The notes under the pieces were generated by a model. The model did no database searches and was not told the DNA's origin. It saw only the letters and a program-made list of their open reading frames with translations. From a virus, in IMG/VR virus record IMGVR_UViG_3300033066_000693, positions 192,001-256,000 of that record: 64,000 bases of DNA; one strand, written 5' to 3'. Position numbers and translations under genes: made by a program. Position 1 is the stretch's first letter, and each line of letters opens with the position of its first letter. Positions 44,101 to 64,000 of this stretch are shown here, piece by piece.

Positions 44101-44103
44101 AGC

Positions 44104-48000: not shown

Positions 48001-51000
48001 TCTAGAACGTCTAGCTCATTGAAGAACATAAAACAGTCATATACTTTTGGCTTGCTAGGACTAACCCTATCTATAATTGTCAATCCATTGCAGTTATCAA
48101 ATATCTCCCTTATCCTCCATTCCTTATTTTCAGCCAAGAAATCATTAATTGCGTCAACAAGCCCCTTAGAATAGTTCTCTTTGAACTTCCAATCCCACTC
48201 TTCTCCGTCTTGGCTCTTATGCCCAAAAGTAACAGTATCATGCATTATGATGTACTTCTTTACTTTGGACGAGTGCATTCGTAGTTCAGCTAAAAGCTGA
48301 TCATACGAGTGCTTGGTATCAATGAATAGCAAGTCGGTAGGCTCTATCTCTATTTGCAGGCAATCTCTGGCTTCAAATGTGAAGTTGATTCCTTTGCGGC
48401 TTGCCTCGGTAGCCACCTTCTCCACAGCAGGACAATAGAACTTGTCATAAGATCTCATAATCTTAGGAAGTCCTGCAAACAAGCCCCATGTTGAGTTGCC
48501 AGTTCTAACCCCAAACTCTGTTATGTGTTCGCACTCTTGCGCATACTTCTTAAGAGTTGGAAGATGCTCATAGATGTCTCCTGATATCCCCTCATGATTA
48601 GTGCTTCTCTTCTCGTACTCTTCAAGGGTTGGGTCTTTATGCTTTTGCTTGATATAGAGAGCGTTCTTTGGCGATTTCTCCTCGTCATTGCTTGTATAAA
48701 TCTCTCTGAATGTTCCGCCTCCCTTGTGAACCATAGGGAACAAGAACAATCTCTCGTCATTCCCGGGAGACTTATCACTGTATGTGATATCATGAGGAAC
48801 TTCTACAAGAGCATAGCCTTCGTCTGCCGCTCGCTTGCAGTAATCAGCGTCTTCATGATAACCAATACCAAACTCCTCGTCTAGGTATCCTATCTTAGAG
48901 ATTACTTCTCGCTTGATCATAGCGCAGAAGAAAAGAAGATACTCGCTCTGTATATCGCTTCTCCATGACTTCCTAGCCCCTGTAATCCCAACTTTAGGAT
49001 TAGAAAAAGGAGCAGACAATACAGATATCCAAGATCTATCTAGTATCTCTGTGTCATTGTTGAGAAGTATAACATACTCGCCTTCCGCAAGCTTCATGCC
49101 TGCATTCGTTGGCTTAACGTATCCCAATGCCTTATCAAACCAGACAAGCTTGAAAGAAGACCCAAGACTCTCTACGTAGGCTTTCGTGCCATCGGTACAT
49201 CCGTTTGCGACAACGATAACCTCGACATTGCTCATGTCTGTATACTTGATAATGCTTTCAATACAAGGCCTAAGATGATCGTCTAGATGGTTGTATGTTG
49301 GAATGACAATGGAATACTTTGGCTTAATCTTCTTGCTAGGCTTTTCTGCCTCGACTCTCATGTTATAGCCCCAATGAGATGTGAACTGAGGCTCAAGCCT
49401 CTTGAGGTTCGTAAACCCAACGCCTCCAAGATGGTCAAACATGATTTCCTCATACCATCCAAATAGATGAGGATTGCTAACCTTTGGGTCATAGACAGTT
49501 GTACCGTATATGCAGTTGAGGAGAGTATACCTATCTATTTTGTTAGCTGCTTCAAAATGGCGACAGAGTTCTAGAATGTCTGGCAACTCAAGACATAGCT
49601 TTCCTCCGGGTGCCAAAACTCTAAACCATTCAGCAAGGATTGCTGACGCCTCATAGCAAGAAAAATGCTCAAAGACATGGATAGCAGATATCTCGTCAAT
49701 GCTATTGTCTGGGTATTCTAGCTTACGAGCGTCCATTTTTACGTCTGCGGCTGGGCTATACAAGTCAATATTGATGTACCCCGGCATAAGAACGTCGCCG
49801 CATCCTATGTTTAGCTTCTTTTTCTTATTGCCGTATCTATCAAGCAAGATAGCCTCGTTTCTTGCAACGATTTCCGTCCATTTTGGAACGCCATGCACAG
49901 TTTGGCTAGATTTGTGCCAAATAGGGAAATGAATCACATGGTCAGATGCGTCTCTAAGTCTATTATACTTTACGTCATTTGGAACTTGAACAACATCAAG
50001 ATTGGCTTTATGTAACTTCCAACAGTAGTCAATATCCTCGCCATATCCGGGATTAAAGATCTCGTCCAACAATCCAAACTTCTCAATGATGGTATCTTTC
50101 AACATTACGCAGAAAAACAACAAGAACTCGAAGCTTGTCTCGGCATGAAAGTTCTTAGCTGCGCCAGTTATTCCGGTCTTTGGATTATCTATGTAAGGCT
50201 TTTCCAACATTCTAAGCCATTCACTCTTGGGTTGTTCAAGAAGTATGTTGTCATTGTTTAATAGAACAACATACTCTCCCATAGAGATCTTGATTCCTTC
50301 ATTAGTTGCCTTTGTGTAACCAGCGGGGTCAGTCATCCAGAATAGCTTAAATGGATGACCCAATCCTCGAACATAGTCCTTAGTTCCGTCAGTACAGCCA
50401 TTAGCGACAACAATAACTTCAACCTCGTCAAGGTTAGTGTACTTGATAATGCTTTCGAGACATGGCTTGAGACAGTCATCCAAATGGTTATAAGTCGGGA
50501 TAATGATGGAATACTTTGGCTTTGGGTGCTTAGTAATCACAGATTTTCTATTGTGGTCAGTCATCTTGATGTCCTTAAACGTTATTTTGTCTTTGTGATA
50601 GATAGGAAACTCTCTATTGACATTAGGATTATGAAGTAGAGAGTCTGTATCAAAATCTAGATCATAGTGAATGTCAGTAGGGATTTGCTTTATCAGATAT
50701 CCGGCTTTAGAGAGACGAACGCAAAAATCAATGTCCTCTTCATACCCTAAGCCAAATCCCTCGTCCAATATTCCTATCTTATCGAAAATCGACCGTCGAA
50801 TCATGGCACAAAAGAAAACCATGTACGGTTGTCTGAATATCGTCTTACCATTGTTCCATGCTAAGCGAATATCTTTGTTTGGTCCAGTTATACCAGTCTT
50901 AGGATTTTCAATGAAAGGCTTCTCAAGCATATTAAGCCAATCGTTCTTCTTTTGAGGACAAAGAACAACGTCATTGTTGAGCAGTACAACAAACTCTCCC

Positions 51001-51251
51001 CTTGACGCTCGGATACCAGCGTTGGTGGGCTTGATATACCCCTCAGGATTTTTCATCCAAATCAGCTTAAATGTTGGACCAAGACTCTCTACAAAAGCTT
51101 TCGTGCCATCAGTACAGCCATTGGCAACGACAATGACCTCAACCTCGTCAAGGTTAGTGTACTTGATAATGCTTTCGAGACATGGCTTGAGACAGTCATC
51201 CAAATGGTTATAAGTCGGGATGACAATAGAATACTTTACGCTAGAACTCAT
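45063..51251 (-). CDS. 2062-aa multidomain glycosyltransferase/methyltransferase polyprotein
   Basis: Approximate domain map: GT2a 50577-51239, GT2b 49842-50516, class-I SAM MTase 49347-49817 (LNIGCGDVL...HVFEHF), GT2c 48672-49319, Methyltransf_24-like O-MTase 48072-48599 (EFGVRTGNSTWGLFAGLP...LLFIDTKHSY), GT17-like 47262-48050 (YDCFMFFNELDVLEIRLNELD...GKPKPLYF), FkbM-type MTase 46617-47234 (VLDIGGNVGMFS...KIDCEGSEYDIL), second GT17-like 45762-46550, GT2d 45066-45746 (VAIVMPYYN...LVDDGS...CDSDD). Confidence 0.7.
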   Translation of the reverse strand: MSSSVKYSIVIPTYNHLDDCLKPCLESIIKYTNLDEVEVIVVANGCTDGTKAFVESLGPTFKLIWMKNPEGYIKPTNAGIRASRGEFVVLLNNDVVLCPQKKNDWLNMLEKPFIENPKTGITGPNKDIRLAWNNGKTIFRQPYMVFFCAMIRRSIFDKIGILDEGFGLGYEEDIDFCVRLSKAGYLIKQIPTDIHYDLDFDTDSLLHNPNVNREFPIYHKDKITFKDIKMTDHNRKSVITKHPKPKYSIIIPTYNHLDDCLKPCLESIIKYTNLDEVEVIVVANGCTDGTKDYVRGLGHPFKLFWMTDPAGYTKATNEGIKISMGEYVVLLNNDNILLEQPKSEWLRMLEKPYIDNPKTGITGAAKNFHAETSFEFLLFFCVMLKDTIIEKFGLLDEIFNPGYGEDIDYCWKLHKANLDVVQVPNDVKYNRLRDASDHVIHFPIWHKSSQTVHGVPKWTEIVARNEAILLDRYGNKKKKLNIGCGDVLMPGYINIDLYSPAADVKMDARKLEYPDNSIDEISAIHVFEHFSCYEASAILAEWFRVLAPGGKLCLELPDILELCRHFEAANKIDRYTLLNCIYGTTVYDPKVSNPHLFGWYEEIMFDHLGGVGFTNLKRLEPQFTSHWGYNMRVEAEKPSKKIKPKYSIVIPTYNHLDDHLRPCIESIIKYTDMSNVEVIVVANGCTDGTKAYVESLGSSFKLVWFDKALGYVKPTNAGMKLAEGEYVILLNNDTEILDRSWISVLSAPFSNPKVGITGARKSWRSDIQSEYLLFFCAMIKREVISKIGYLDEEFGIGYHEDADYCKRAADEGYALVEVPHDITYSDKSPGNDERLFLFPMVHKGGGTFREIYTSNDEEKSPKNALYIKQKHKDPTLEEYEKRSTNHEGISGDIYEHLPTLKKYAQECEHITEFGVRTGNSTWGLFAGLPKIMRSYDKFYCPAVEKVATEASRKGINFTFEARDCLQIEIEPTDLLFIDTKHSYDQLLAELRMHSSKVKKYIIMHDTVTFGHKSQDGEEWDWKFKENYSKGLVDAINDFLAENKEWRIREIFDNCNGLTIIDRVSPSKPKVYDCFMFFNELDVLEIRLNELDSVVDKFVLAEARYSHQGKPKPLYFEQNKERFKKFLHKIEHVIVEEFPPTTDTWVREPYQRNQIARGLKDCKDNDIIILSDVDEIPRASVVKQYNISMGICCLQTRLFYYRLNLETPIKWYKVRIFPYAELKGRNLQYFRGENDYGYKHVFEDAGWHFSFLGDKDHIKDKINNWAHDEFNNDRINNDDNVVKSIENGKDVLGRDLSFSPVQIDETYPKFVRDNLKKFEEKGLIFVPRKAIDIRETFLAYESNLFHEVIGLNSYSVFREDVENKSVLDIGGNVGMFSYLCTTLGAKKIVSFEPIEETYKLLVSNMKQYSNVHPVHVAVSSPGTTEVVLEGGGPVAKLSENGNGSKIKAISLAQALEYFPGDNDVVLKIDCEGSEYDILLKADPRDILRCKTIFAEFHNTLHPNKEYNFSMLREYIEKLGYDCVPIQEHQMGFWMFNPASGAYDIFIPLDPKLINTKNFKFVRKEKAKPKPKVYDCFCFFNELDILEVRLNELDPYVDHFVLCEMNVTHSGKPKPLYFNENKERFRRFWPKIIHVIINECPQTDNAWVREHYQRNFMINSLLQCQENDIIILSDLDEIPRGSKIQEYKGQKDWMYFEQHQYNYYLNMSVGISKPGPGAYSRITTFGNLKKVNYGLTDLRYQTITENDRIADGGWHFGWMGGAEKIVEKLESYAHQELNKPEFTNAEKIQQNIDSCKEALGRDNPPHVPVLVSIDSTYPKFIVENQERFLQKKWIKSGRVAIVMPYYNDKDMLVSSTMAIVSQTYRDWVLFLVDDGSSLENRASTILGRKKDSRIKIIEKPNGGVSSARNAALDKIKESGGFEYIAYCDSDDVWDENHLSSQIKALQEADLVYSEVRHEFTDGSIAYPDGIPNPPEYPGLEFMRRCPFIYISSVVHKAKCLSVGGFDSSLDSIEDWDMWVRIAKAGYKFKKNSDSKITYTVKFSSNMASKRTPEISDRFHKKNNS
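50421..51240 (-). repeat. Intragenic duplication: about 100-nt near-identical segments at 50421-50520 and 51141-51240 (start of the GT2a and GT2b modules)
   Basis: tcaacctcgtcaaggttagtgtacttgataatgctttcgagacatggcttgagacagtcatccaaatggttataagtcggga occurs twice almost verbatim. Confidence 0.7.
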
Positions 51252-51306
51252 TCAGCGCTGCCTTTCGGTTATACCTTATCTATCGGTTAGGAAGAGGATC
51301 TAGGAC

Positions 51307-52299: not shown

Positions 52300-52318
52300 A
52301 GTTATTCTTCGACCACTT

Positions 52319-52915: not shown

Positions 52916-53527
52916 TTAAAATCTCCTAAGACTAGAATCTACAAACTTCAAAGCATTCTCATTTACTGGCAAGCCTACAAAATTTGCTATTCCTTGAATT
53001 GTTATCTCAGAATTATCTACTAATTGATCAAACTCTACAATTAACTTGGGGACATTAGCAATTGCAAGTTGCGCATTATGTACCTCAATAAGTTTTGCAT
53101 ACCGCTCTTCAGTATTAGGATCGTTTGCTCTAGCTCTCCAACTTTCCTTACTTTTTTCAAGAGGTCGCTGCGTGATAATAAGTTTTATATCAGGCAAATT
53201 CAAAAACTCATCAGCTAAAAATCCAATAAGATGGTTCTTGACTCCCCATATTATTCCTCTGCTCATTCGATCTTGAATGATTCTCCTAATCCTCAATCGT
53301 CCATCATTATTTGAATCAATAGGTAGAGTCCATGTAATCGGATCATTTTCATTAATTAGCTCTAAGGCTTCAGTTATAATTCGATCAACAAAAAATCCTT
53401 TAGCATTCCATTCTGGATCTGATTCAAATAAATCATCTCCCATATGAACACCTAAATTATGTAATATTCCAGCGATACAACTAGTTCCACTTCTTGGTAA
53501 GCCTAAAACTAAAACGCATGTTCCCAT
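52916..53527 (-). CDS. Sulfotransferase (Stf0/Sulfotransfer_3-like)
   Basis: N-terminal VLVLGLPRSGTSCIAGIL matches the PAPS 5'-phosphosulfate-binding loop (PRSGTT/PKSGTT); later IITQRPLEKSKES fits the 3'-phosphate-binding R-x(n)-S element; about 200 aa, as in small bacterial sulfotransferases. Confidence 0.5.
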   Translation of the reverse strand: MGTCVLVLGLPRSGTSCIAGILHNLGVHMGDDLFESDPEWNAKGFFVDRIITEALELINENDPITWTLPIDSNNDGRLRIRRIIQDRMSRGIIWGVKNHLIGFLADEFLNLPDIKLIITQRPLEKSKESWRARANDPNTEERYAKLIEVHNAQLAIANVPKLIVEFDQLVDNSEITIQGIANFVGLPVNENALKFVDSSLRRF

Positions 53528-53536
53528 ATTTCGCCT

Positions 53537-56500
53537 TTAGGTATGAGTGATATAAGTCAGATCAGGGAAGAAATACATTCTATCAGCATGAGTAGCAATA
53601 CCGAGTACCTGAATTACATTATCGGTTGCGCTAGGCTGAGTTTGAGTCAAGGCTCCTGCTGTGGTTGAAAGATAAACTATACCGCCGACAGTCCAAGCCC
53701 ATGCATCATTACGAGCTATTCCATGCAGCAAAATATTGCCAGCATTGCTTGATGTTATTGTAGCTGTAGCCATTCCCATACACGGATAAGTAGCTGAACC
53801 ATCTGCGTCAGCCTTCCATACAAGACCATCAGATTTTAGATAAACAACATCTCCGAATGCTAGATTTTCTCCTGCTGTCAAACTGATTATTAAGCCATTT
53901 GCTGTTACGTCTGATCCCGGAACCGCTGTAAGAGACAAAGCTCCTGAATAACCGCTGTAAGCTGAGTATCCCGAGAAGCCTGACGAACCTTGCGTTCCAA
54001 TATATCCTGAGAAGCCGCTATAAGCCGAGTAACCGCTTCGACCACTATAAGCTGAGTAACCAGAGAAGCCGCTTATACCAGAGTAAGCAGAATAGCCACT
54101 GAAGCCGCTTAGACCGCTATATCCTGAGAAGCCACTATCCCCGCATATGGCTGTTATACAGAAATTTGCTCTTAGAAGAGTAATTACATCCGTATTTATC
54201 ATATTCTTAATGCGTATATCAACCGTGTCTGTTGCAGACAATGACAATACGCCGGTAAGAGATACTGAAAATATTCCGGTATTAGGATCTGTTGTTGTTG
54301 TTCTAGTGACAATGTTAGATTGAATACCATTTACAAAAACAGAGAAATTGAAGTTGACCGCAGTAATGGCACTATTAAAAGACAATGAAGCGTTTACTAA
54401 GTAAGCCCCATCTGATCCTGCAATAGCTTGACCAGCAGAATTTGTAAATCCTACTTGCGAACTTAGAGTTAGACCACTAAGAGAGTCCCAATCACCAGAT
54501 CCATCATATACCCAACCGCTTACTCCATCAGTCGTATCAACTAGTTCAATATAAGAAGCTACTCCCGGAGTCGCTGCCGCTCCGCTATAACCACTGAAAG
54601 CAGAGTAACCACTAAAGCCAGAGAAGCCGCTGTAAGCTGAATAACCGCTGCGACCGCTATAAGCAGAGTAGCCAGAGAAGCCTGAGACGCCTGAGTAAGC
54701 GGAGTAACCGCTGAAGCCAGAAGGCCCGCTGTAGCCGCTGAAACCGCTCGGTCCTGAATAACCACTAAAGCCAGAAGGCCCGCTGTAGCCTGAGAAGCCG
54801 CTTATGCCAGAATAAGCTGAATAGCCTGATCGCCCACTGTACCCTGAGAAGCCACTAGCTCCATCAACGCCAATAATTCCATCTGATCCTTTATATCCGC
54901 TGAAGCCGCTTATACCAGAATAAGCAGAGTAACCGCTGAAGCCAGAGATACCGCTATAAGCAGAGTAGCCCGAGAAGCCTGAAGATCCCTGCGGTCCTAT
55001 GTAACCAGAGAAACCGCTGTAGCCAGATTTTCCTGAGTATCCGCTGAATCCAGATCCACCGTCTGCCCAACTTGTATTACCAAATCCATCTGTTCTTAGG
55101 AACTGACCATTGACTCCGCCGCTTGTAGGAGGGGAGAATGAAGAACTATAAGTTCCTGCCTGTGGATATATTGAAACGGTACCAGTATTTCCGCTGTTGT
55201 ATAAAGAGAAACCAATACCATCTCTAAATTGAACAGGATTACTTGCGCTGAATCTCCATGTTGTTTCGTTAACATCATTTACTTCTAGTTGTAACTGCGA
55301 AACATCTCCGATTTTATCCACTCTCAAAATATCATAACTAAAATCACCGCTATTTGGGCTTTGTTTGATTATGAGTGATGAAGTATCATTACTTGTCGGA
55401 GTAATTGTATTACGAGTTGGAGAACTAGGAGCAACAAGAACTGCCTCGTTCAAATTGGCAGAATAACCGCTGTATCCTGATACTCCAATATAACCGCTGT
55501 ATCCTGAGAAACCGCTATAAGCAGAATAACCACTCTTACCGCTGTAGCCTGAGAAGCCGCTATAAGCAGAATAACCACTAAAGCCAGAAGAACCTTGCGG
55601 CCCAACGTAGCCTGAGAAGCCAGAAGACGCAGCCGCGCCGTCAGCGCCTTTATCTCCTGTTCTTGTAAAGCTTATTACAACCACATCATCAGTCGAGAAC
55701 AAAAAGCCAGATACAAAACTGCCTGTAACATAGGTTACCGGGATAAACAAGCCCCATGTATTGCTTCCGTCAGCAACTACCGATCCTGTTATTTGAAAAT
55801 CAGCAAAAACTGACGAGTTATCTTCTTTGAAAACTCTAATAGATCCCTTAGTAGTATTAGTGCTATCATCAATAGCATTAATCCATGTGGTTATATCTGT
55901 TCCAGATGAATTGAGAGGACTAATACCAACAAATCCTGCTAAAGTAGGATCTGCTGTTGTATTACCTATAGTTGTATTAAATGCCAAAACGCCCGGATAT
56001 GGTCCTGAGCCAGATATTCCCGACTCCTCGTATATATACTCTTGACTATCTCCGCCAAATGCCCCTATTAGACCGCTAAAGCCTGAGAATCCGCTTGTTC
56101 CAGTTCCACTATAACCTGAGAAGCCGCTATAGCCTGAAAATGCTGAATAGCCCGAGAAAGCCGAGTACCCGGAGAAGCCTGAGTAAGCAGAGTAACCGCT
56201 CTTGCCGCTGTAGCCTGAGAATGCAGAATAGCCTGATACTCCGCTGTAACCGCTAAAGCCTGACGTACCGCTGTAAGCTGAATATCCTGAGAAACCTGAG
56301 ATACCTTGCGCACCAATGTAACCACTGAAGCCCGAAGAACCTTGCGTTCCTATGTAACCTGAGAAGCCTGAAGAGCCAGAGTAAGCAGAGTATCCGCTTA
56401 TGCCACTGTAAGCTGAGTAACCCGAGAAACCGCTTATGCCACTGTAAGCTGAATATCCGCTAGAACTAGCCGAGCCGTCTAATCCCTTATCCCCTGCGCG

Positions 56501-57187
56501 AGAAAAAGAAATAACGACATCTTCGCTATTGGTAAATATTGGATCGGCAAAGTTTGTTCCAGTTACGAAAGTTACAGGGAATGCGATGTATGGATAGCTT
56601 GATCCATTTACGCCGCTTATCATGTTACCAGTAATTTGAAAATCAGCAAAAATAGTTGAATCTGTAGGACGAAAAAGCCTTAGGCTTCCTCTAATATCAT
56701 TTGTGCTATCATCCCAAGTTTGCTGCCAAAGCGAAGCTTCTTTGAATGCTATATAAGCTGCGTCAGAAGGATTGACGTTCTCATTAAACAAAGCGTCCAT
56801 GAAGAAGAAACCGCTATTTGAACTAGCTCCCGAAGCGCCGTCTGTTTGCGGAACTTGAATGCTATCGCCGCCAAATATCCCGGTAAAACCAGAAAAACCT
56901 GAGTCGCCAGCATATCCTGAATAACCGCTTACGCCTACATATCCTGAGAAGCCGCTCTTACCGCTATAAGCTGAAAAACCGCTTGGTCCTGAATAGCCAC
57001 TAAAGCCTGAAGGGCCGCTGTATCCTGAGAAGCCGCTTGTGCCTCCGCCTCCACCGCCAGCGTTGTCCTTATTCTCCCATTTACCTGAACTAGAGTTGTA
57101 CGTTAAAACTTGACCATTTGTAGGCGAACCTATAGCTACATCATTTAGCTGTCTAAGCAAATTGAGAATTTTAATTGCCGAAGGCAT
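53537..57187 (-). CDS. 1216-aa collagen-like (Gly-X-Ser)n fibre with interspersed globular domains, a C1q/TNF-like domain and a C-terminal globular head
   Basis: Five collagen-like blocks alternate with about 85-aa domains of conserved pattern W..D.STN...GS.R.F...DSS.FADFQITG...V.ISF.R.GDKG; the C-terminal 130 aa is non-repetitive. Confidence 0.8.
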   Translation of the reverse strand: MPSAIKILNLLRQLNDVAIGSPTNGQVLTYNSSSGKWENKDNAGGGGGGTSGFSGYSGPSGFSGYSGPSGFSAYSGKSGFSGYVGVSGYSGYAGDSGFSGFTGIFGGDSIQVPQTDGASGASSNSGFFFMDALFNENVNPSDAAYIAFKEASLWQQTWDDSTNDIRGSLRLFRPTDSTIFADFQITGNMISGVNGSSYPYIAFPVTFVTGTNFADPIFTNSEDVVISFSRAGDKGLDGSASSSGYSAYSGISGFSGYSAYSGISGYSAYSGSSGFSGYIGTQGSSGFSGYIGAQGISGFSGYSAYSGTSGFSGYSGVSGYSAFSGYSGKSGYSAYSGFSGYSAFSGYSAFSGYSGFSGYSGTGTSGFSGFSGLIGAFGGDSQEYIYEESGISGSGPYPGVLAFNTTIGNTTADPTLAGFVGISPLNSSGTDITTWINAIDDSTNTTKGSIRVFKEDNSSVFADFQITGSVVADGSNTWGLFIPVTYVTGSFVSGFLFSTDDVVVISFTRTGDKGADGAAASSGFSGYVGPQGSSGFSGYSAYSGFSGYSGKSGYSAYSGFSGYSGYIGVSGYSGYSANLNEAVLVAPSSPTRNTITPTSNDTSSLIIKQSPNSGDFSYDILRVDKIGDVSQLQLEVNDVNETTWRFSASNPVQFRDGIGFSLYNSGNTGTVSIYPQAGTYSSSFSPPTSGGVNGQFLRTDGFGNTSWADGGSGFSGYSGKSGYSGFSGYIGPQGSSGFSGYSAYSGISGFSGYSAYSGISGFSGYKGSDGIIGVDGASGFSGYSGRSGYSAYSGISGFSGYSGPSGFSGYSGPSGFSGYSGPSGFSGYSAYSGVSGFSGYSAYSGRSGYSAYSGFSGFSGYSAFSGYSGAAATPGVASYIELVDTTDGVSGWVYDGSGDWDSLSGLTLSSQVGFTNSAGQAIAGSDGAYLVNASLSFNSAITAVNFNFSVFVNGIQSNIVTRTTTTDPNTGIFSVSLTGVLSLSATDTVDIRIKNMINTDVITLLRANFCITAICGDSGFSGYSGLSGFSGYSAYSGISGFSGYSAYSGRSGYSAYSGFSGYIGTQGSSGFSGYSAYSGYSGALSLTAVPGSDVTANGLIISLTAGENLAFGDVVYLKSDGLVWKADADGSATYPCMGMATATITSSNAGNILLHGIARNDAWAWTVGGIVYLSTTAGALTQTQPSATDNVIQVLGIATHADRMYFFPDLTYITHT
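54150..54430 (-). other. C1q/TNF-like (BclA-CTD-like) jelly-roll domain inside the 1216-aa fibre (tentative)
   Basis: Segment FNFSVFVNGIQSNIV...TVDIRIKNMINTDVITLLRANFCITAI resembles C1q-domain C-terminal strands. Confidence 0.3.
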
Positions 57188-57226
57188 ATGCTACAATACC
57201 AAAAAACAGCCATCAACCCTTCAGTT

Positions 57227-58327
57227 TTAGAATACTGAATTAGACGACGAGGGGGCTTGAGTTGCCCCAATATCCCTGTACGGAACCAAGCCAATCGCTC
57301 TACCTACTGCTGTTGGTTTAAGGGTGAAATTCTTATTTGTTGCAGCATCAATATAATCTGATGTATACGTTCCATTATCAGTTGTCATAGGATTCTGCAA
57401 CGGCCAGTCTCCTGTATTGTTGTTCGCATTTGTATTATCTCTTGTACGATTGCGGATTAGAGCATTCGGACAAACTGCGCCAGTATATAGATTTTTCAAG
57501 AAGTATCCGCAATCTGTTGCATGACAGTTTACAATTGTATGTACAACTCCTGTAGCATTTGCGCTATTAGGTACTTGAATAGCAGCCGTACTACAGTTAT
57601 AGAATGTGCAGTTTATAATGTTGCTAGGATATGCATTGTTGACGGACTGCATATCAATACCAACAAGACTATCTCTCATAATACAATCAATAACAGTACA
57701 ACTTGTACGAGTAGCAATACAACTTCCAACTCCGCCATAGAGTTTACATCCAATGACTGCATTGTTTTGTTGTAAAGCTATGCATGTTGCAACGTCTGTA
57801 CCAGTTTTCTTTACATCGCAACCTATAATATGCACCTGCCAACCATAAGATGCAAACGCAGAAGATACAGAAAAGCCAGCATTGTATTGGTTTTCAGCAT
57901 AACAGTTGTATGCATATCCATAGTTACCATTGAACAAGATCATTTCATTTGATCTTGAGCCTACTATCTTCAATCCCTCAATAATATTACCATCGCCGTT
58001 CAATGATATTCTATCTTGCGCAGCCATATTAATTACAGGCATACCAGTTGTAACAAGATCTCCATTAGCGTCTCTTGAGTAAGTAAGATCGCCAATAGTG
58101 TTTGTATAACCACGTATCCATGCTGGGCTAGCAGATGTTTGAGTGTTCAACGTAGTAAAAGCTGCGCCGCCGTTATTGACTGTATATGTTCCAGCCTTTA
58201 CATTAAGACGTATACCTGCGCCAACATGCTGAATGCCTGTAATAAAATCCCAAGCATCAGAAGAATCATTAGTTCCTCCGTGGCCAGAAGTTCCGCTTGT
58301 AGTTACATATCTTTCAGTCCAAGCCAT
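57227..58327 (-). CDS. Right-handed parallel beta-helix protein (tailspike/polysaccharide depolymerase candidate)
   Basis: Repeated N/C/G-rich turns: IGCDVKKTG, NNAVIGCKLYGGVGSC, NCTFYNCSTAAI, VNCHATDCGYF, about 22-aa periodicity typical of pectate-lyase-type beta-helices. Confidence 0.5.
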   Translation of the reverse strand: MAWTERYVTTSGTSGHGGTNDSSDAWDFITGIQHVGAGIRLNVKAGTYTVNNGGAAFTTLNTQTSASPAWIRGYTNTIGDLTYSRDANGDLVTTGMPVINMAAQDRISLNGDGNIIEGLKIVGSRSNEMILFNGNYGYAYNCYAENQYNAGFSVSSAFASYGWQVHIIGCDVKKTGTDVATCIALQQNNAVIGCKLYGGVGSCIATRTSCTVIDCIMRDSLVGIDMQSVNNAYPSNIINCTFYNCSTAAIQVPNSANATGVVHTIVNCHATDCGYFLKNLYTGAVCPNALIRNRTRDNTNANNNTGDWPLQNPMTTDNGTYTSDYIDAATNKNFTLKPTAVGRAIGLVPYRDIGATQAPSSSNSVF

Positions 58328-58328
58328 T

Positions 58329-58733
58329 TTATCTCCTCATCATTTCAACAATCAATGATACTTGAGTAAGCGAAGCAGGAGTAGTGCCTGAATCAACAAC
58401 AAACTCGATTATATCACCGGCGTTGACTTGAGTATTCCATCCTCGTAAATTTGCGTCTTCGTATGATTGAGCAGAAGTTAGAGTAGGTTTACTTGAAGCG
58501 CATATTGATGTTGTCGTTGGAAAACCTTTGTAGGTACTTTTCTTAATATCTAACGCTATCGTACCTGCTTGATCTGCAAGCAGAGTTACTTTAGTAATAA
58601 TTCCAGCAGCAGGCAACCTCGTATAGCCTTTAGATCCAGTTGTAATAACACCACCGCCTCCTATTGTAATACCAAAGGTTTCAAGGTTTGTAGCAGGATT
58701 AGGTTGAGCAATGCCATAAAAACCCTGTTCCAT
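58329..58733 (-). CDS. Small structural protein (134 aa)
   Basis: Operon ORF between the beta-helix gene and the fibre gene. Confidence 0.45.
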   Translation of the reverse strand: MEQGFYGIAQPNPATNLETFGITIGGGGVITTGSKGYTRLPAAGIITKVTLLADQAGTIALDIKKSTYKGFPTTTSICASSKPTLTSAQSYEDANLRGWNTQVNAGDIIEFVVDSGTTPASLTQVSLIVEMMRR

Positions 58734-58736
58734 AAT

Positions 58737-59144
58737 TTAATAGTCTCCTGCAAAAGCTTGAGCTATCCATGTTTCAGCACTGTTTCTAACAGAAAAAGTA
58801 AACACAAGACTATGACCATTGCCTACAACGTATGGAGTTATATTTGGTCGCCACACGGCTGTCGCTGCCTGAACTGTATTGCTTGGAGTTGTTGCTGTAA
58901 CAGAGACTTCGCCTACCAAGTAGTATGTTGTTGAAACAAGATAAAACACACGAATAATAGCATTTGCACTTTGGGCATTTGCTACAAATGAAATTCCATC
59001 AACTCTTGTTCCATTTGTTCCACCTGTAACAACTGTAGCCTTGTTAGTCGGGGCGCTTGTACCCATGCCTGTATCTGCTGCCGCCAAAGAAACTGGCGTA
59101 AACTGAGGCGTAAGCGTAAAAATTGGATTCGTATTTGCTGGCAT
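58737..59144 (-). CDS. Small structural protein (135 aa)
   Basis: Operon ORF; T/S/A-rich. Confidence 0.45.
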   Translation of the reverse strand: MPANTNPIFTLTPQFTPVSLAAADTGMGTSAPTNKATVVTGGTNGTRVDGISFVANAQSANAIIRVFYLVSTTYYLVGEVSVTATTPSNTVQAATAVWRPNITPYVVGNGHSLVFTFSVRNSAETWIAQAFAGDY

Positions 59145-59191
59145 TTTTATCTCCCTATAATCATGTTAAACATCGGATATCATAAGCAATA

Positions 59192-62100
59192 TTATGAAAA
59201 TGCTCCATATGCGAATACCGCAGAAGAAGGATTTCCCCATCCAGAATAACCTGAGAAACCGCTGTAAGCAGAGTAGCCGCTGCGACCGCTGTACGCCGAA
59301 TAACCGCTGTAGCCTGAGTAAGCTGAGTAGCCTGAGTAGCCTGAGAATCCACTATATCCGCTGAAAGCAGAATATCCTGATCTACCACTATAGCCTGAAT
59401 TGCCTGCTCTTGCAAAACTGGCTATAATTGGATCATTATTAGCAAATGTTCCATTAGATACTATATGAGTTACTGTTAGACCTGATGCACTTCCTGCTGT
59501 TGGATCTTGATAGAGCGTAGTAGATAGGCTGTAATCAACAAAAATACTAGAGTCATTTCTCTTTACAAGTCTAAGTATGCCGCACGGATTGTTGTTAGAG
59601 GATTGTAGAGATAACATCCAAGTAGATATATCAACAGTGTCGCCGTTGGTTGAATCCATCCAAAGCAGAGTTACAGCAGATGGCGTAGCTGAGTTACCAA
59701 ACGAAAGCTTGCCAACACCCGGATTATCAGTAAGAGAAGTATTAAACAAGAATGGTTGACTATCCCCACCAAACATTCCAGAATAACCGCTCTTCCCAGA
59801 ATATCCTGAGAAGCCGCTCGGACCTGAGTAGCCGCTAAAGCCTGATGTTCCTGAGAAAGCTGAGTAACCTGAGAAAGCGGAGTAACCGCTGAAACCTGAG
59901 ATACCAGAGTAAGCAGAATAGCCGCTAAAGCCAGAAGGACCGCTGTATCCTGAGAAACCGCTTGGTCCTGAGTAACCACTAAAGCCAGAGATACCGCTGT
60001 ACGCTGAGTAACCACTGAAGCCGCTTATACCGCTATAAGCAGAGTAACCACTAAAGCCCGAGGGACCGCTATATCCTGAGAAGCCACTCGGTCCTGAATA
60101 TCCGCTAAAGCCGCTGGGGCCGGAGTATCCAGAGAAAGCAGAGTAGCCGCTGAAACCGCTGTAAGCAGAATATCCGCTGCGACCGCTATAGCCGCTGAAG
60201 CCACTAGGCCCTGAATATCCACTGAATCCTGAAGGGCCGCTATATCCGCTGAAGCCAGACATACCGCTATAGGCGGAGTAGCCACTAAAACCGCTTATAC
60301 CAGAGTAAGCAGAGTATCCTGAGAAGCCGCTTGGTCCTGAGTAGCCGCTGAAGCCCGAAGGTCCACTATAACCTGAAAAACCAGAAACTCCAATGTATCC
60401 TGAGAAGCCACTATAAGCAGAGTAGCCACTGCGTCCGCTATAAGCTGAGTACCCTGAGAAGCCGCTCGAACCTGAATAACCTGAATACCCAGACCAACCT
60501 GCTCTTGTAAAAGTTAGAATTACTGGATCATTATTTGCAAAAGCAGAACCTCCGCTAGCAACATAATTAACTTCATAACCGATTTCGGTTCCTGCCCCAA
60601 AAGAAATAGTATCTGAAACTATCTTAAAATCTACAAACTTGGCTGAATTATTTCTGGCAACAATTCTAACAAATCCATATGGATTTGCATTGTTAGCAAT
60701 CAATTGACTTTGCCAAGCACTTGTGCTTATAGAATCTGAATTAAGATCATCTATCCACAAAACGCTTGCTAAAGAATAGGTTGCATTATCAATGCTTAGA
60801 TGCATTGAAGATGCAGAACCAATAGCTGTATCAAACAAGAACGGTTGACTATCCCCGCCAAACATTCCAGAATAACCACTCTTCCCAGAATATCCTGAGA
60901 AGCCGCTCGGACCTGAATATCCTGAGAAGCCGCTCGGACCTGAGTAGCCTGAGAAGCCGCTCGGTCCTGAGTAGCCAGAGAATCCACTTATACCGCTATA
61001 AGCAGAGTAGCCGCTAAATCCCGATGGTCCGCTATATCCTGAGAAACCACTTGGTCCTGAGTAGCCGCTAAAGCCGGAAGGCCCTGAATATCCGCTAAAG
61101 CCTGAAGCTCCAATATAGCCGCTGAAGCCGCTTATGCCGCTGTAAGCTGAGTATCCTGAGAAGCCGCTCGGACCTGAGTAACCGCTGAAGCCTGATGTTC
61201 CAGAGTAAGCAGAGTAACCACTTCTACCGCTGTATCCGCTGAACGCTGAATAGCCGCTAAAGCCGCTTATTCCATACAAGTTTGTTACATAAGCAATTCT
61301 GCTTGATGTTGTACCCAAGATTTCTTGCACCTGACTAGCAGACGACCAATCAACTCTTAGTCCTTCTCCGCCTGTGTTATTATAATGCTCAATAACAATT
61401 GGATACCACTCGTTTGCAGTAAGAGCTATGGTATTTGTAGCGTTCCAAGTAGTTTGAGACTGATCAACCCAGTTGTTGATAACTAGAGTTCCATTGATCC
61501 AAATCCTACAACCGTCATCAGAGCTTTCATAGAAAGTGTATGTTTCCGTAAAGGCCGGTCTAATCCATCCAGTTATTCTTCCACTATATGCTGTTGTCTG
61601 TCCATTAGGACTCTTAGTTGTCCAGTTGATCGTGGACACAAGCTCTGTCAATATAACTCTGCCATTCAGAGAACCAACTTGAGCAGTATCATCAAACCAT
61701 ACGGCATTAAGAGAGCCTGTATTGTAAGTAAGAGCAGGAGTTCCAGAATATCCAGAGAAAGCAGAGTAACCGCTTCTGCCACTGTATCCTGAGAAACCGC
61801 TATAAGCCGAGTAGCCGCTGAAGCCCGAGTAAGCCGAGTAGCCGCTGAAGCCTGATGTTCCGCTATAAGCAGAGTATCCTGAGAAGCCAGAAGGCCCTGA
61901 ATATCCGCTGAAGCCAGAGGGGCCGCTGTACCCTGAGAAACCGCTTGGTCCTGAATAGCCTGAGAAACCTGAGAAACCTGAGACACCAGAGTAAGCTGAG
62001 TAACCACTAAAGCCTGAGGCTCCTTGAGTTCCTATGTATCCTGAGAAGCCTGAGATACCGCTATAAGCAGAGTAGCCAGAGAAGCCAGAAATACCACTAT

Positions 62101-64000
62101 AAGCAGAATAGCCGCTCTTCCCAGAGAAGCCTGAATAGCCTGAAAAGCCAGAGCGAGCAGTTCTAGATATAGATACAATTATGTCGCTATCTGTAGTGAA
62201 TAGAGATACAGCATGATCACTTGCATCAACAAGAGAGCAAGGGATCTTAGTGACAGTATGCCCATCAATAACAACTGATGTTACTGGAACGTCTATTCCA
62301 AACAACGCATAAATAGAAGAATCATATCTATCCATTATCTTAAGAAAAGCTATTGGATAAACTGTATTTATGTCATCAAAACTAGATACCCAATCCGGAT
62401 ACCCGCCTATATTCAAAATAATGTTAAAAGCATCATCAGCTATATCAGTATTTCCGTCCGCTCCGTCTATAAAACATAACCCTAAACCAGTAGCTTCTAC
62501 TTGAGCAACAGAAGACTTATAAATAAATTGCTGACTCTCTCCGCCTTCCGCCCCTACATGACCGCTATAGCCTGATTTTCCTGAATATCCACTAAAGGAA
62601 GAATAGCCACTAAAACCTGATGTTCCTAGGTATCCTGAGAAGCCGCTGTAGGCTGAATAGCCACTAAAGCCAGAAGGACCGCTATATCCTGAGAAGCCGC
62701 TTATACCGCTGTAGGCAGAGTAACCACTAAATCCTGATGTTCCAGAATAAGCAGAATATCCTGAGAAGCCGCTTATGCCACTGTAAGCTGAGTATCCGCT
62801 AAAGCCGCTTGGTCCTGAGTATCCACTGAAGCCCGAGGGTCCGCTGTAGCCACTAAAACCGCTTGGCCCTGAATAGCCGCTAAAGCCGCTATAAGCTGAG
62901 TAACCACTTCGACCGCTATAAGCTGAGTATCCTGAGAAACCGCTTATGCCTGAGTAAGCTGAGTATCCTGAGAAACCGCTAGGCCCTGAGTAGCCGCTAA
63001 AGCCTGAGATGCCAGAGTAAGCAGAATATCCGCTGAAGCCTGATATTCCAGAGTAAGCGGAATAACCGCTGAAGCCGCTTGGTCCGCTATATCCTGAGAA
63101 ACCGCTTGGCCCTGAGTATCCTGAGAAGCCGCTATAAGCTGAGTAACCAGAGAAGCCGCTTATACCAGAGTAAGCAGAATAGCCTGAGAAACCAGAAGGA
63201 CCGCTATAACCGCTAAAACCCGAGGGTCCGCTGTATCCTGAGAAAGCTGAATAGCCAGAGAAGCCTGAGGTTCCTGAGTAAGCTGAGTATCCGCTGAAGC
63301 CACTCGGTCCTGAATAGCCTGAGAAACCACTCGGTCCTGAATAGCCTGAGAAGGCTGAGTAGCCGCTAAAGCCCGAAGGTCCGCTGTAGCCGCTAAAGCC
63401 TGACGTACCGCTATAAGCTGAGTATCCTGAGAAGCCTGAAGCACCTTGTGTTCCTATGTAACCGCTGAAGCCACTTATGCCTGAGTAGCCACTTCGACCG
63501 CTATAAGCTGAGTATCCTGAGAAGCCGCTTATGCCACTGTAAGCTGAGTATCCGCTGAAGCCAGACGAACCGCTGTAAGCAGAGTAACCGCTATCTCCTG
63601 CTCTAACAAAGCTAATAGCAACTCGATCCCCAAAGGCGAATATTGGAGAACCTATTGAAGTTCCACCAATAAAAGTAACTTCAACTCCATAAACGGTATA
63701 ACTTCCACCGCCGGGATTGAATGTAAAGCCTGCCGGTCCTGTTATCTGATAATCTGCATACAAGCTTGGATCTTCGTTTCTAAAAATCCTCAAGCTTCCA
63801 TGCGGAATATTAGTTGAGTCATCAAATGTATCTAGCCACCATTGATATACGCAAGAAGTATTGAATCCTAGGGTAAGCGCATCAGAAGGGTTAAGAGTTT
63901 CAAACCCTAAAGCATCAACATAGCAAAATCCTATGTTATTTCCTGCTACGCCAGAAGCTCCGTCTTCTTGTTCGAACTCGAAACTATCTCCGCCAAACGA
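59192..64000 (-). CDS. Collagen-like (Gly-X-Ser)n fibre, over 1600 aa, N-terminus lies beyond the window end; contains a PA14 domain and repeated globular interruptions
   Basis: The frame stays open from the track start (TTG at 63793) to position 64000, and the upstream translation (...WWLDTFDDSTNIPHGSLRIFRNEDPSLYADYQITG...) continues the same domain family found inside the protein. The track therefore truncates the N-terminus. Confidence 0.8.
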   Translation of the reverse strand, partial: SFGGDSFEFEQEDGASGVAGNNIGFCYVDALGFETLNPSDALTLGFNTSCVYQWWLDTFDDSTNIPHGSLRIFRNEDPSLYADYQITGPAGFTFNPGGGSYTVYGVEVTFIGGTSIGSPIFAFGDRVAISFVRAGDSGYSAYSGSSGFSGYSAYSGISGFSGYSAYSGRSGYSGISGFSGYIGTQGASGFSGYSAYSGTSGFSGYSGPSGFSGYSAFSGYSGPSGFSGYSGPSGFSGYSAYSGTSGFSGYSAFSGYSGPSGFSGYSGPSGFSGYSAYSGISGFSGYSAYSGFSGYSGPSGFSGYSGPSGFSGYSAYSGISGFSGYSAYSGISGFSGYSGPSGFSGYSAYSGISGFSGYSAYSGRSGYSAYSGFSGYSGPSGFSGYSGPSGFSGYSGPSGFSGYSAYSGISGFSGYSAYSGTSGFSGYSAYSGISGFSGYSGPSGFSGYSAYSGFSGYLGTSGFSGYSSFSGYSGKSGYSGHVGAEGGESQQFIYKSSVAQVEATGLGLCFIDGADGNTDIADDAFNIILNIGGYPDWVSSFDDINTVYPIAFLKIMDRYDSSIYALFGIDVPVTSVVIDGHTVTKIPCSLVDASDHAVSLFTTDSDIIVSISRTARSGFSGYSGFSGKSGYSAYSGISGFSGYSAYSGISGFSGYIGTQGASGFSGYSAYSGVSGFSGFSGYSGPSGFSGYSGPSGFSGYSGPSGFSGYSAYSGTSGFSGYSAYSGFSGYSAYSGFSGYSGRSGYSAFSGYSGTPALTYNTGSLNAVWFDDTAQVGSLNGRVILTELVSTINWTTKSPNGQTTAYSGRITGWIRPAFTETYTFYESSDDGCRIWINGTLVINNWVDQSQTTWNATNTIALTANEWYPIVIEHYNNTGGEGLRVDWSSASQVQEILGTTSSRIAYVTNLYGISGFSGYSAFSGYSGRSGYSAYSGTSGFSGYSGPSGFSGYSAYSGISGFSGYIGASGFSGYSGPSGFSGYSGPSGFSGYSGPSGFSGYSAYSGISGFSGYSGPSGFSGYSGPSGFSGYSGPSGFSGYSGKSGYSGMFGGDSQPFLFDTAIGSASSMHLSIDNATYSLASVLWIDDLNSDSISTSAWQSQLIANNANPYGFVRIVARNNSAKFVDFKIVSDTISFGAGTEIGYEVNYVASGGSAFANNDPVILTFTRAGWSGYSGYSGSSGFSGYSAYSGRSGYSAYSGFSGYIGVSGFSGYSGPSGFSGYSGPSGFSGYSAYSGISGFSGYSAYSGMSGFSGYSGPSGFSGYSGPSGFSGYSGRSGYSAYSGFSGYSAFSGYSGPSGFSGYSGPSGFSGYSGPSGFSGYSAYSGISGFSGYSAYSGISGFSGYSGPSGFSGYSGPSGFSGYSAYSGISGFSGYSAFSGYSAFSGTSGFSGYSGPSGFSGYSGKSGYSGMFGGDSQPFLFNTSLTDNPGVGKLSFGNSATPSAVTLLWMDSTNGDTVDISTWMLSLQSSNNNPCGILRLVKRNDSSIFVDYSLSTTLYQDPTAGSASGLTVTHIVSNGTFANNDPIIASFARAGNSGYSGRSGYSAFSGYSGFSGYSGYSAYSGYSGYSAYSGRSGYSAYSGFSGYSGWGNPSSAVFAYGAFS
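61250..61600 (-). other. PA14 carbohydrate-binding domain inside the fibre
   Basis: SGRITGWIRPAFTETYTFYESSDDGCRIWINGTLVINNWVDQSQTTWNATNTIALTANEWYPIVIEHYNNTGGEGLRVDW matches the PA14 consensus (G.i.ap.sG.YtF...sDDg.rl.idG..vid.W...L.aG..Y.i.iey.e..G.a.l.l.W). Confidence 0.6.

Follow-up and report, generated by a model that had tools for sequence, protein, structure and literature searches.

The three collagen-like genes in the 64,000-nt window (the entire stretch of DNA that was analyzed) most likely encode long modular virion fibers of a large tailed phage, probably tail or side fibers. As a whole, the available evidence is best explained by fibers that are trimeric, O-glycosylated, and modular, and we estimate the probability of this reading at roughly 60%.

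Fiber genes A (53537-57187, 1216 aa), B (59192..64000, at least 1602 aa), and C (38555-40030, 491 aa) are all on the minus strand and are dominated by triplet repeats (588 triplets in total), as the initial annotation of this DNA had described, including the location of the third gene. Since gene B is open for at least 1602 codons without a stop up to the end of the window, it does run off this end as claimed, and its 5' end lies beyond. Protein A contains, in this order, an N-terminal motif, G-X-S tracts, two copies of a recurring module, two other globular domains, and a C-terminal domain. In protein B, five G-X-S tracts, each 19-118 triplets long, are combined with four modules and one PA14 domain, and the chain terminates in a 13-aa tail without a globular C-terminal domain. 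In protein C, which shares the N-terminal motif of A, 105 G-X-S triplets precede a C-terminal jelly-roll domain, and the corresponding gene is located directly downstream of genes for a GT2 and a GT9-like protein. All tracts in A and B have globular domains on their flanks.

Some of these globular domains can be assigned to families. The PA14 domain lies in line in fiber B (aa 761-889; 61334..61720, minus strand) and matches Pfam PF07691 with an E-value of 1.1e-14 and a score of 55 bits (cut-off 24). The C-terminal domain of C (aa 376-491; 38558..38905, minus strand) is a TNF/C1q-like jelly roll. A C1q-like identity was also suspected for residues 878-1015 of A (54143..54556, minus strand), but neither a PDB sequence search nor a homologue search gave a match, and the C1q-like fold is established for the C-terminal domain of fiber C only. 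This domain of A, the family of which is unnamed, is found again as the C-terminal domain of a protein from a related locus (P0180, locus L014). The second unnamed domain of A (aa 577-709; 55061..55459, minus strand) carries a terminal GQFLRTDG..W motif, like the N-terminal motif, and a domain related to it occurs in gene B of relatives. The C-terminal domain of A (aa 1085-1216; 53540..53935, minus strand) has weak matches to Phage_cement_2 (23.1 bits, below the cut-off of 24), to residues 133-227 of the neck fiber protein gp82 of phage A-1(L) (chain "gp82N", E = 7e-4), and to the C-terminus of a Flavobacterium phage tail fiber (35% identity). When whole protein A was used in a tblastn search, this domain alone was matched, again in Flavobacterium phages.

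Genes A and B had been called adjacent, but three ORFs for proteins of 366, 134, and 135 residues (57227..59144, minus strand) separate them. The 134-residue protein (58329-58733) is a free-standing form of the C-terminal domain of collagen-like fiber proteins elsewhere, and the 366-residue protein has a weak beta-helix match that finds no support in PDB or NCBIfam. These three ORFs probably encode tip or accessory proteins of fiber B.

The assignment to the virion draws on several observations. PHROG tail-fiber families match genes A, B, and C, and a distal domain resembles a solved tail-fiber receptor-binding domain. In four control contigs, a protein containing the recurring module is encoded where a tail fiber is expected, behind genes for the tape measure, Dit, or the tail tip, and one of the control contigs (L027) has a gene for a tail assembly chaperone behind that of the module protein. 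Other observations point less plainly to the tail: in locus L003, a G-X-S fiber homologue comes after capsid genes, the nearest recognized tail gene in the window encodes the tail tube (21077-22150), more than 16 kb from the fibers, and the C-terminal domain of A has its weak resemblance to a neck fiber and to cement proteins. The window originates from a large uncultivated phage; a megablast search with positions 40,000-53,500 against 50,697 phage records returned no match and thus identified no cultured relative.

The 588 triplets form tracts of 5-118 triplets, in which the phase is unbroken, with no indel over up to 118 triplets. Pfam Collagen (PF01391) matches A, B, and C with 151.5, 289.3, and 120.7 bits, respectively, far above the cut-off of 27.2, which supports the earlier description of collagen-like virion fiber proteins. 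The top sequence matches of the fiber proteins in PDB are collagen chains. An indel-free period of three with one small residue per triplet fits a collagen helix and does not fit beta strands, which have a period of two. Polyglycine-II bundles, which need about two Gly per triplet, and beta-helices were dropped by argument, based on residue periodicity and Gly content.

The composition of the tracts is unusual for a collagen. Gly is not invariant at each third residue, since position 1 is Gly in 506 triplets (86%), Ala in 78 (13%), and Ser in 4 (0.7%). Nearly all Ala triplets are AYS or AFS, and they are mostly spaced every 3-4 triplets, consistent with the regular AYS sites that had been recognized in the first reading. 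Position X is Tyr in 42%, Phe in 26%, and Pro in 8% of the triplets, so that Tyr and Phe together account for 68%, and position Y is Ser in 89%, as had also been noticed. Pooled over both positions, Pro contributes 4% and charged residues 3.7%. Since proline and charged residues are almost absent, the tracts alone would make weak triple helices, and this composition, together with 13% Ala in place of Gly, is unfavorable for such a helix. In the host-guest propensities of Persikov et al. from 2000, aromatic residues in X and Ser in Y are said to be among the least favorable. Prokaryotic collagens are known to be stabilized by Pro at X, by Thr or Gln at Y, or by many charged pairs, with Pro reported at 19-31% of X positions and Thr at 32-48% of Y positions (PMC8968730), and the tracts do not show such a composition. 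G-(Tyr/Phe)-Ser collagen is nevertheless widespread: it occurs in at least 586 metagenomic protein clusters, and this class has neither of the known stabilizing compositions. A search of the full-text literature with the repeat peptide strings gave no match, and "Gly-X-Ser" retrieved lipase motifs only.

These same numbers can be read differently. The tracts may not be triple helices but extended, flexible spacers, either heavily O-glycosylated (mucin-like) or of an aromatic-rich, low-complexity type, so that the globular beads alone would oligomerize and bind. The 13% Ala at the Gly position and the low contents of Pro and charged residues, along with 68% aromatic residues in X, would suit such a spacer, and a bottle-brush linker would be expected to combine closely spaced Ser residues with a large glycosylation cassette nearby. 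The tracts also contain [G/S]-Y-[G/S] and S-G-F-S-G strings, which we take to resemble cohesive low-complexity motifs. We judge this alternative unlikely, though deserving of serious attention, and prefer the collagen-type helix with which the strict period of three agrees.

The module that interrupts the tracts occurs in six copies with 27-50% pairwise identity, all on the minus strand: two in A (A1, aa 105-233, 56489..56875; A2, aa 377-512, 55652..56059) and four in B (B1, aa 2-136 in window numbering, 63593..63997; B2, the most divergent copy, 62153..62548; B3, 60494..60862; B4, 59399..59773). The initial annotation correctly pointed to a recurring conserved domain but underestimated its size as about 85 residues; the copies measure 123-136 residues, and the motif given at that time corresponds to the C-terminal two thirds. 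The structure prediction that had been suggested was carried out with AF2 for a monomer of B4 and gave a confident all-beta domain (mean pLDDT 90.6). No match to this module was found in Pfam even at E ≤ 1, NCBIfam holds no model for it, PHROGs returned a single weak match, and the fold has no close solved structure. To this extent the module is as unfamiliar as had been stated, but it is by no means peculiar to this phage. A profile was derived from the six copies of the window plus one homologue; all six copies match nearly the entire profile (domain E-values of 1e-32 to 1.6e-15), and it detected 3,836 representative protein clusters at E ≤ 1e-3. This exhaustive search overturned the apparent rarity of the module in a word-indexed search, which had produced a single match. 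The names of the cluster members are generic, uninformative, or evidently mistaken.

Many of these homologues contain 2-7 copies of the module alternating with collagen tracts, and the flanking tracts are often (e.g., in P0001 and P0049) of the ordinary GPT/GXT/GXQ type. By Foldseek, the model of the module superimposes with TM scores of 0.76-0.90 on at least 35 viral proteins. Matches annotated as "collagen triple helix repeat", with TM scores of 0.8-0.9, come from uncultured phages, Synechococcus phage S-CAM7, Klosneuvirus, Indivirus, and Marseillevirus, and a protein from Synechococcus phage S-H34 is annotated as "baseplate wedge tail fiber connector". The module is a widespread, unnamed shaft domain of phage tail fibers and giant-virus collagen-like proteins, and a domain this common plainly merits consideration as a new Pfam family.

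A set of sugar-related genes lies between fiber genes C and A on the minus strand. The genes for a short GT9-like protein (40075-40557) and a GT2 glycosyltransferase (40554-41603) are immediately upstream of fiber gene C. They are followed by genes for dTDP-6-deoxyhexose synthesis, namely RmlA-like (41593-42312), RmlD-like (43240-44100), and RmlB (44104-45066), among which a LAGLIDADG endonuclease gene (42303-43160) is inserted; the same order of rml genes, minus the endonuclease, is found in three other loci (L014-L016). Next to RmlB, a 2062-aa multidomain enzyme (45063..51251) contains four GT2 and two GT17 stretches as well as FkbM-type and class I methyltransferase domains, and its homologues adjoin G-X-S collagen genes in other viral contigs. 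Finally, a putative sulfotransferase of 203 aa (52916..53527) is encoded 9 nt downstream of gene A. It matches Pfam Sulfotransfer_3 with 30.8 bits (cut-off 27) and nothing in NCBIfam or PDB, and the gene is kept in close relatives only; this one weak Pfam match gives faint indication of a role in sulfation. BclA-type glycosylated collagens have residues with a hydroxyl group in Y as O-glycan acceptors and genes for sugar synthesis and glycosyl transfer beside the structural gene, and such residues and genes are present here, with a cassette that is syntenic across phages.

The initial proposal linked the fibers to these neighboring enzymes, and comparison with other loci bears this link out. 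The score counted only genes homologous to the GT genes of the window. By this measure, 13 of the 27 viral loci have homologues of GT2 and GT9-like (32-69% identity) beside a G-X-S collagen gene, in many cases accompanied by a multi-GT2 gene, and the 25 control loci contain none of these homologues. The corresponding Fisher p is about 3e-5, calculated for loci that are phylogenetically related and therefore not independent. A first test with 9 against 5 loci had not been significant (p = 0.13), and the sample was then enlarged. In a second set, 9 of 10 loci with enough downstream DNA carry the GT2/GT9-like homologues, and when the search was started from the GT2 gene instead, four of six informative loci had a collagen ORF of the G-X-S type no more than 1 kb downstream. 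Of the gene pairs, GT2 and GT9-like show the tightest linkage to collagen genes of this type. This gene set travels with the G-X-S class across very different phages, which makes glycosylation of the virion fibers a testable prediction far beyond the mycobacteriophages, in which such glycosylation was reportedly first shown.

Phage glycosyltransferase and rml genes can also act on surface polysaccharides of the host. The glycosyltransferase, rml, and methyltransferase genes might therefore modify the host envelope or some other phage or host target, and their closeness to the fibers would reflect a shared host-interaction block. PHROGs indeed places the matching families among moron, auxiliary metabolic, or host-takeover functions, including O-antigen conversion, further glycosyltransferase genes lie far from the fibers in the window (4207-5304 and 22766-23935), and one control locus with a G-X-T collagen (L025) has unrelated GT1 genes nearby. 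However, the GT2/GT9-like pair is found directly beside G-X-S genes across contigs with proteins that are only 32-45% identical, in both gene orders, and on contigs ranging from 57 kb (L003) to 346 kb (L005), and its absence from the control loci is complete. In addition, the cassette lies on the fiber strand, with most neighbors overlapping or a few bases apart and a largest gap of 79 nt. We find an envelope target distinctly improbable in view of this arrangement, and regard the fibers themselves as the likelier substrates.

The repeats are less uniform in DNA than in protein. The long near-identical repeat tracts that had been claimed for the DNA are absent: off-diagonal BLASTN matches between and within the fiber genes are 65-77% identical, and the longest exact stretch shared among repeats is 53 nt. 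The peptide GFSGYSGPS occurs in 43 non-overlapping copies with 43 different DNA codings, the mean pairwise identity of which (0.689) is close to the value expected for random synonymous codons (0.675). The synonymous sites of the repeats are scrambled to the random level, so that near-identical DNA does not exist as the proposed substrate for fiber variation. The concern that the repeats might be assembly artifacts, raised with the original claim, did not materialize either, since there are no identical repeats of collapsible length. Furthermore, the 3' 2 kb of gene A appears at 100% identity in four independent metagenome assemblies. Although the public collection lists no identical 1216-aa product and a 739-aa form occurs in six contigs (the four loci returned being from four different samples), an assembly origin of the long repeat genes, or of the 466 codons that gene A has in excess of its relatives, can be dismissed as highly improbable, because exact repeats of at most 53 nt offer no sequence that an assembler could collapse or join wrongly, all 1216 codons of gene A are in an open frame, the extra segment consists of two well-formed modules too divergent from the other copies (27-50% identity) to be duplicate reads of gene B, and the 5' flank of gene A belongs to a distinct, roughly 80%-identical lineage and is no chimera of window sequence. 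Codon-scrambled DNA may prevent collapse of the repeats within a genome and would be a natural example of genetic stability for a highly repetitive protein.

Length variation and domain shuffling, which had been predicted as a consequence of near-identical DNA, do occur among close relatives, but the predicted substrate is missing. The 739-aa version of A from near-identical relatives (P0169) lacks both modules and is 100% identical in DNA downstream of a junction that falls inside a G-X-S tract of A (aa 538-568; 55487..55576, minus strand). On the 3' side of this junction, the window is 100% identical to relatives L021-L024; on the 5' side, the window sequence is missing from the relatives or only about 80% identical. 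The gene B homologue of close relatives is complete and encodes 1477 aa with two modules and no PA14 domain. Recombination between strains probably reshuffles domain content and length, with junctions that can fall in triplet tracts, and the sharp junction in A illustrates how strains exchange fiber cassettes.

We propose the following picture of the fibers. The (Gly/Ala)-(Tyr/Phe/Pro)-Ser tracts would form a collagen-type helix of three chains, with which small globular beta domains would alternate in line with the stalk: the module of about 130 residues, the sugar-binding PA14 domain, and the other unnamed domains, with the TNF/C1q-like jelly roll ending fiber C. If these domains trimerize and hold the three chains in register, each collagen segment would be nucleated and clamped at both ends. 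The dTDP-6-deoxyhexose pathway, the 2062-aa enzyme, the GT2/GT9-like pair, and possibly the sulfotransferase may decorate Ser and perhaps Tyr. Such decoration would stabilize and hydrate the stalk and give the fiber a glycan coat, like that of the BclA filaments of Bacillus spores.

More tentatively, G-(Tyr/Phe)-Ser could be a separate class of collagen, in which the helix would require dense O-glycosylation to form or to be stable, perhaps with sulfation of Tyr or of the sugars, by the dedicated phage-encoded GT2/GT9-like/multi-GT machinery, while the beta modules set the register. We consider this possible rather than probable. If correct, it would add a third stabilization strategy to hydroxyproline and to charge or hydration networks, and no dedicated system for collagen glycosylation would have been described in bacteriophages before. 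A need for glycans in helix formation would also bear on collagen helix stabilization and on the design of recombinant collagens.

Collagen-like phage fibers as such are already known, and the G-(Tyr/Phe)-Ser class, the linked glycosyltransferase set, and the unnamed module are undescribed in the libraries and papers that we searched. Precedents for glycosylated collagens are found among spore proteins. BclA3 of Clostridioides difficile is glycosylated by the glycosyltransferase SgtA (PMC7157674), and BclA from Bacillus anthracis carries glycans within its collagen-like segment according to work cited in PMC9614988 and PMC8968730. Unlike these proteins, the phage fibers have Ser instead of Thr in Y, Tyr or Phe instead of Pro in X, and Ala for Gly in 13% of the triplets, and their tracts are broken many times by globular domains. 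They are viral, reach more than 1600 aa, lack an exosporium-targeting N-terminus, and share no homology with BclA or BclA3 beyond the repeats.

Among viral proteins, EPclA and EPclB from prophages of E. coli O157:H7 and the PHROG "collagen like minor tail" families likewise are phage fibers with a Gly-X-Y tract between trimerization domains, and for EPclA the trimer and the triple helix were demonstrated experimentally (PMC3368898). In EPclA, a single short collagen domain with an unremarkable composition is accompanied by a coiled coil and PfN/PfC domains, whereas the fibers described here contain up to five long G-(Tyr/Phe)-Ser tracts, other interrupting domains, and a dedicated glycosylation cassette. 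The six modules belong to a beta-domain family of cyanophages, uncultured Caudoviricetes, and giant viruses, represented in BFVD by A0A1D8KUV5 (S-CAM7), A0A6G8R690 (S-H34), and A0A1V0SHP6 (Klosneuvirus). Mimivirus encodes collagen-like proteins plus an enzyme that glycosylates them (PMC9614988), a combination to which the collagen-like proteins and candidate glycosylating enzymes of this phage can be compared. The Mimivirus enzyme L230 hydroxylates Lys and glucosylates the resulting hydroxylysine; the phage has no hydroxylase, Lys is rare in its fibers, the likely acceptor is Ser, and the enzymes are of the GT2, GT17, and GT9-like types with a dTDP-sugar pathway. Finally, the neck fiber of Anabaena phage A-1(L) (gp82-gp81-gp80) is a long flexible bead chain, the tip components of which have genes of their own (PMC10966104). 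The beaded design, the putative separate tip genes, and the weak resemblance of the C-terminal domain of A to gp82 are reminiscent of this fiber, but the A-1(L) fiber contains no collagen tracts and is assembled from many small trimers (PMC10966104), as opposed to the one giant chain encoded here.

Every gene of the fibre region is carried by the minus strand, with spacings across the block from small overlaps to a 79-nt gap. Three of these genes encode collagen-like fibre proteins: A (53537-57187, 1216 aa), C (38555-40030, 491 aa) and B (59192-64000), which starts outside the window. The frame of B is open from 64000 down to 59192 across all 1602 codons, in agreement with the initial annotation that this gene runs off the window. 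A and B had also been described as adjacent, but ORFs of 366, 134 and 135 aa intervene. We parsed the three proteins into 588 triplets forming 14 tracts of 5 to 118 triplets each. The first position is occupied by Gly (506), Ala (78) or Ser (4), position X by Tyr (42%), Phe (26%), Pro (8%) and Ile (6%), among others, and position Y by Ser (89%); charged residues account for 3.7% and Pro for 4% of the X/Y positions. GYS (168), GFS (137), AYS (63) and GPS (47) are the most frequent triplets, and the Ala triplets come after GYS, mostly every 3 or 4 triplets. The Pfam Collagen model scores 121-289 bits on the three genes (cut-off 27). The feature is a real collagen-like fibre, although it had been partly misdescribed. 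For bacterial collagens, a 2022 review (PMC8968730) puts Pro at 19-31% of X and Thr at 32-48% of Y, and the word serine is absent from it. A full-text literature search with peptide strings of the tracts found no paper.

Collagen of this G-(Y/F)-S class is widespread, with at least 586 clusters matching protein C at E<=1e-10. In 109 of the best 114 tract-containing matches, Ser takes up over half of the Y positions; aromatic residues exceed 40% of X in 69 of the 114, and Ala rarely replaces Gly (0-12%). We also observed a sub-class on five contigs (L032, L033, L038, L043, L046) with 96-100% Ser in Y and Thr, Trp or Ile in X (G-T-S, G-W-S); these ORFs contain up to 605 triplets, and each contig stops at the collagen gene. 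Another contig (L006, IMG/VR 3300045125_000158, 187 kb) carries more than 16 kb of same-strand G-Y-S ORFs with interspersed globular modules (~5,300-21,980); these ORFs either are many separate fibre genes in an array or belong to a single giant gene split by frameshifts.

The module that interrupts the tracts in A and B occurs in six copies of 123-136 aa with 27-50% identity. Each begins with F-G-G-D-S directly after a tract and ends with R-x-G-D/N, running into the next one. The initial annotation did not recognise this domain, and indeed we found no Pfam model at E<=1, no NCBIfam model and a single, weak PHROG match; the module is nevertheless not peculiar to this phage. A word-indexed search gave one homologue; scanning all 1.84 billion representatives with a profile gave 3,836 proteins at E<=1e-3 (1,237 at E<=1e-10, 105 at E<=1e-30). 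Most of these have 2-7 copies; many alternate the module with G-X-T, GPT or G-X-Q tracts, and others are devoid of tracts. An AlphaFold2 model based on a 62-sequence alignment is all-beta with a mean pLDDT of 90.6. Foldseek matched this model to 45 predicted viral structures (E<=1e-3, TM 0.8-0.9), nearly all annotated "collagen triple helix repeat", from uncultured tailed phages, Synechococcus phage S-CAM7, Klosneuvirus, Indivirus and a Marseillevirus. The fold also matches an S-H34 protein annotated "baseplate wedge tail fiber connector". In four control contigs of the linkage comparison below, the module protein lies downstream of tape-measure, Dit or tail-tip genes; on one of these contigs (L027) it is itself followed by a gene for a tail assembly chaperone. 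Across collagen-containing viral fibres, the module is a shaft domain that is common but unnamed.

At the DNA level, the tracts had been described as near-identical repeats. Self-BLASTN contradicts this description: tract-versus-tract identity is only 65-77%, and the longest exact stretch in common is 53 nt. The 43 non-overlapping copies of GFSGYSGPS are encoded in 43 different ways, with a mean pairwise nucleotide identity of 0.689 compared to 0.675 +/- 0.004 for synonymous codons drawn at random from the genes' own usage, and equivalent Ser positions use both codon families (TCN 434, AGY 293). The repeat is conserved as protein, while its DNA has diverged from itself as far as the code permits. 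This pattern removes the worry of assembly collapse, and with it the proposed substrate for recombination within the genome.

Length and domain variants do exist, as had been anticipated, but between genomes. P0169, a 739-aa form of A, is encoded on six contigs (the four loci returned represent four JGI samples). Its DNA is 100% identical to the window between ~55,500 and the stop codon, then 98% identical as far as 43,537, as against only 78-80% upstream (~56,960 to 59,336). The switch falls inside a tract at A residues 538-568. These relatives are missing A residues ~77-542, including both modules, and their complete gene B (1477 aa) has two modules plus a domain related to A 577-709, without PA14. 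Hence, fibre length and bead content vary among otherwise near-identical phages, with at least one junction inside a triplet tract, in support of the domain shuffling first proposed.

In the window, B includes a PA14 domain (E 1e-14) and ends in a 13-residue tail. Of the ORFs between A and B, the 134-aa one encodes, as a separate protein, a domain that is located elsewhere at the C-terminus of collagen-like fibres. Given these two features, all three small ORFs probably encode parts of the B tip. At its C-terminus, A carries a domain that is 35% identical to a Flavobacterium phage tail fibre and weakly matches neck fibre gp82 of A-1(L) as well as Pfam Phage_cement_2. Only two phage hallmark genes could be recognised in the window, those for a PhoH-like ATPase (33022-33810, minus strand, E 1e-64) and the tail tube protein Phage_tube_2 (21077-22150, minus). 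A 357-aa protein (26157-27230, minus) strongly matches Pfam Volactin PF25216 (E 2e-57, 195.6 bits, cut-off 35) and is an actin-fold protein in what otherwise resembles a tailed phage. Five very large minus-strand ORFs (5301-19133 and 28815-32090; 1180, 1175, 1280, 900 and 1091 aa) gave no Pfam or PHROG match.

A glycosylation cassette lies between A and C. In transcription order it begins with a putative sulfotransferase (weak match) and two further ORFs, followed by a 2062-aa enzyme (45063-51251, minus) that combines four GT2 and two GT17 stretches with several of methyltransferase type. RmlB (above the NCBIfam equivalog cut-off), an RmlD-like reductase, a LAGLIDADG homing-endonuclease-like gene (42303-43160, minus) and an RmlA-like nucleotidyltransferase come next, and a GT2 and a short GT9-like protein precede C; no RmlC was found. 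The LAGLIDADG gene looks like a mobile insertion, because the RmlD-like and RmlA-like genes that it separates abut in three IMG/VR contigs (L014-L016). A Thr/Ser/Asn-rich 198-aa ORF (52319-52915, minus), located between the sulfotransferase-like gene and a 330-aa ORF and conserved in close relatives, ends with a 33-nt tandem repeat (52332-52409, 2.4 copies). The ORFs at 51307-52299 and 35665-36147 (minus) have a conserved ~80-aa N-terminal domain in common (E 1.6e-23), also present in L014 and L015. The 2062-aa enzyme gene contains two internal duplications (50164-50517 versus 50884-51237, 76% identity; 49053-49320 versus 50970-51237, 71%), and giant fusion enzymes of this kind are also encoded in L005, L007, L014 and the close relatives L021 and L023. 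Further glycosyltransferase (GT) genes remote from the fibre cluster (4207-5304 and 22766-23935, minus) are of GT4 type (E 4e-16) and, weakly, GT1 type; relatives L021/L022 carry GT4 and Peptidase_S8 genes upstream of B, past the window end.

By tblastn with the window enzymes, the whole cassette is found with its order kept in L014-L016 (52-70% identity), two contigs of 170 and 187 kb and a 4.7-kb fragment (L016) ending just past the GT9-like gene. The L015 copy sits on L006's contig, ~10 kb from its G-Y-S ORFs. In each of the first three G-X-S homologue contigs inspected, GT genes adjoin the homologue. In many remoter contigs, the GT2 and GT9-like pair, often with a multi-GT2 gene, directly adjoins the G-X-S gene (32-52% identity). 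Conversely, when the search started from the GT2 gene, 4 of 6 informative loci had a G-X-S collagen ORF no more than 1 kb downstream. A larger sample fetched with a second G-X-S protein contained the pair in 9 of 18 loci, and in 8 of the 9 negative loci the sequence stops at the collagen ORF or no further than 1.3 kb from it. As controls, 20 loci were fetched with a G-X-T/G-X-Q module protein, and the pair was in none of them. Scoring in all sets covered homologues of the window's own enzymes, and unrelated GT1 genes lie near one control locus. Pooled, the pair occurs in 13/27 G-X-S loci and 0/25 controls (Fisher p = 3e-5; p = 0.004 against only the 11 controls with a collagen-like ORF), p-values that are optimistic as loci within each set are related. 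The neighbourhood is conserved in both gene orders, on contigs from 57 kb (L003) to 346 kb (L005). This conserved neighbourhood is still the strongest functional clue.

The main rival explanation takes the tracts for extended, glycosylated spacers and not for triple helices. Three observations argue for trimeric stalks of collagen type in which globular beads act as clamps: the triplet period is never broken and each triplet has one small residue, canonical collagen tracts take the equivalent position in homologues, and fibre C has a TNF/C1q-like cap. For fibres A-C we infer trimer, helix and glycans alike. The composition argues that G-(Y/F)-S helices would be weak when unaided, which makes the tightly linked glycosylation genes attractive candidates: their products may stabilise the stalk helices and decorate the fibre surface. 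The closest precedents are BclA and BclA3 (PMC7157674, PMC8968730); among viruses, Mimivirus L230 provides one, though its chemistry differs (PMC9614988). The fibres belong to a known kind, the collagen-like phage fibre, as an undescribed variant with three parts: the G-(Y/F)-S composition of the tracts, a conserved set of dedicated glycosyltransferases and a shaft module that is very common yet unnamed.
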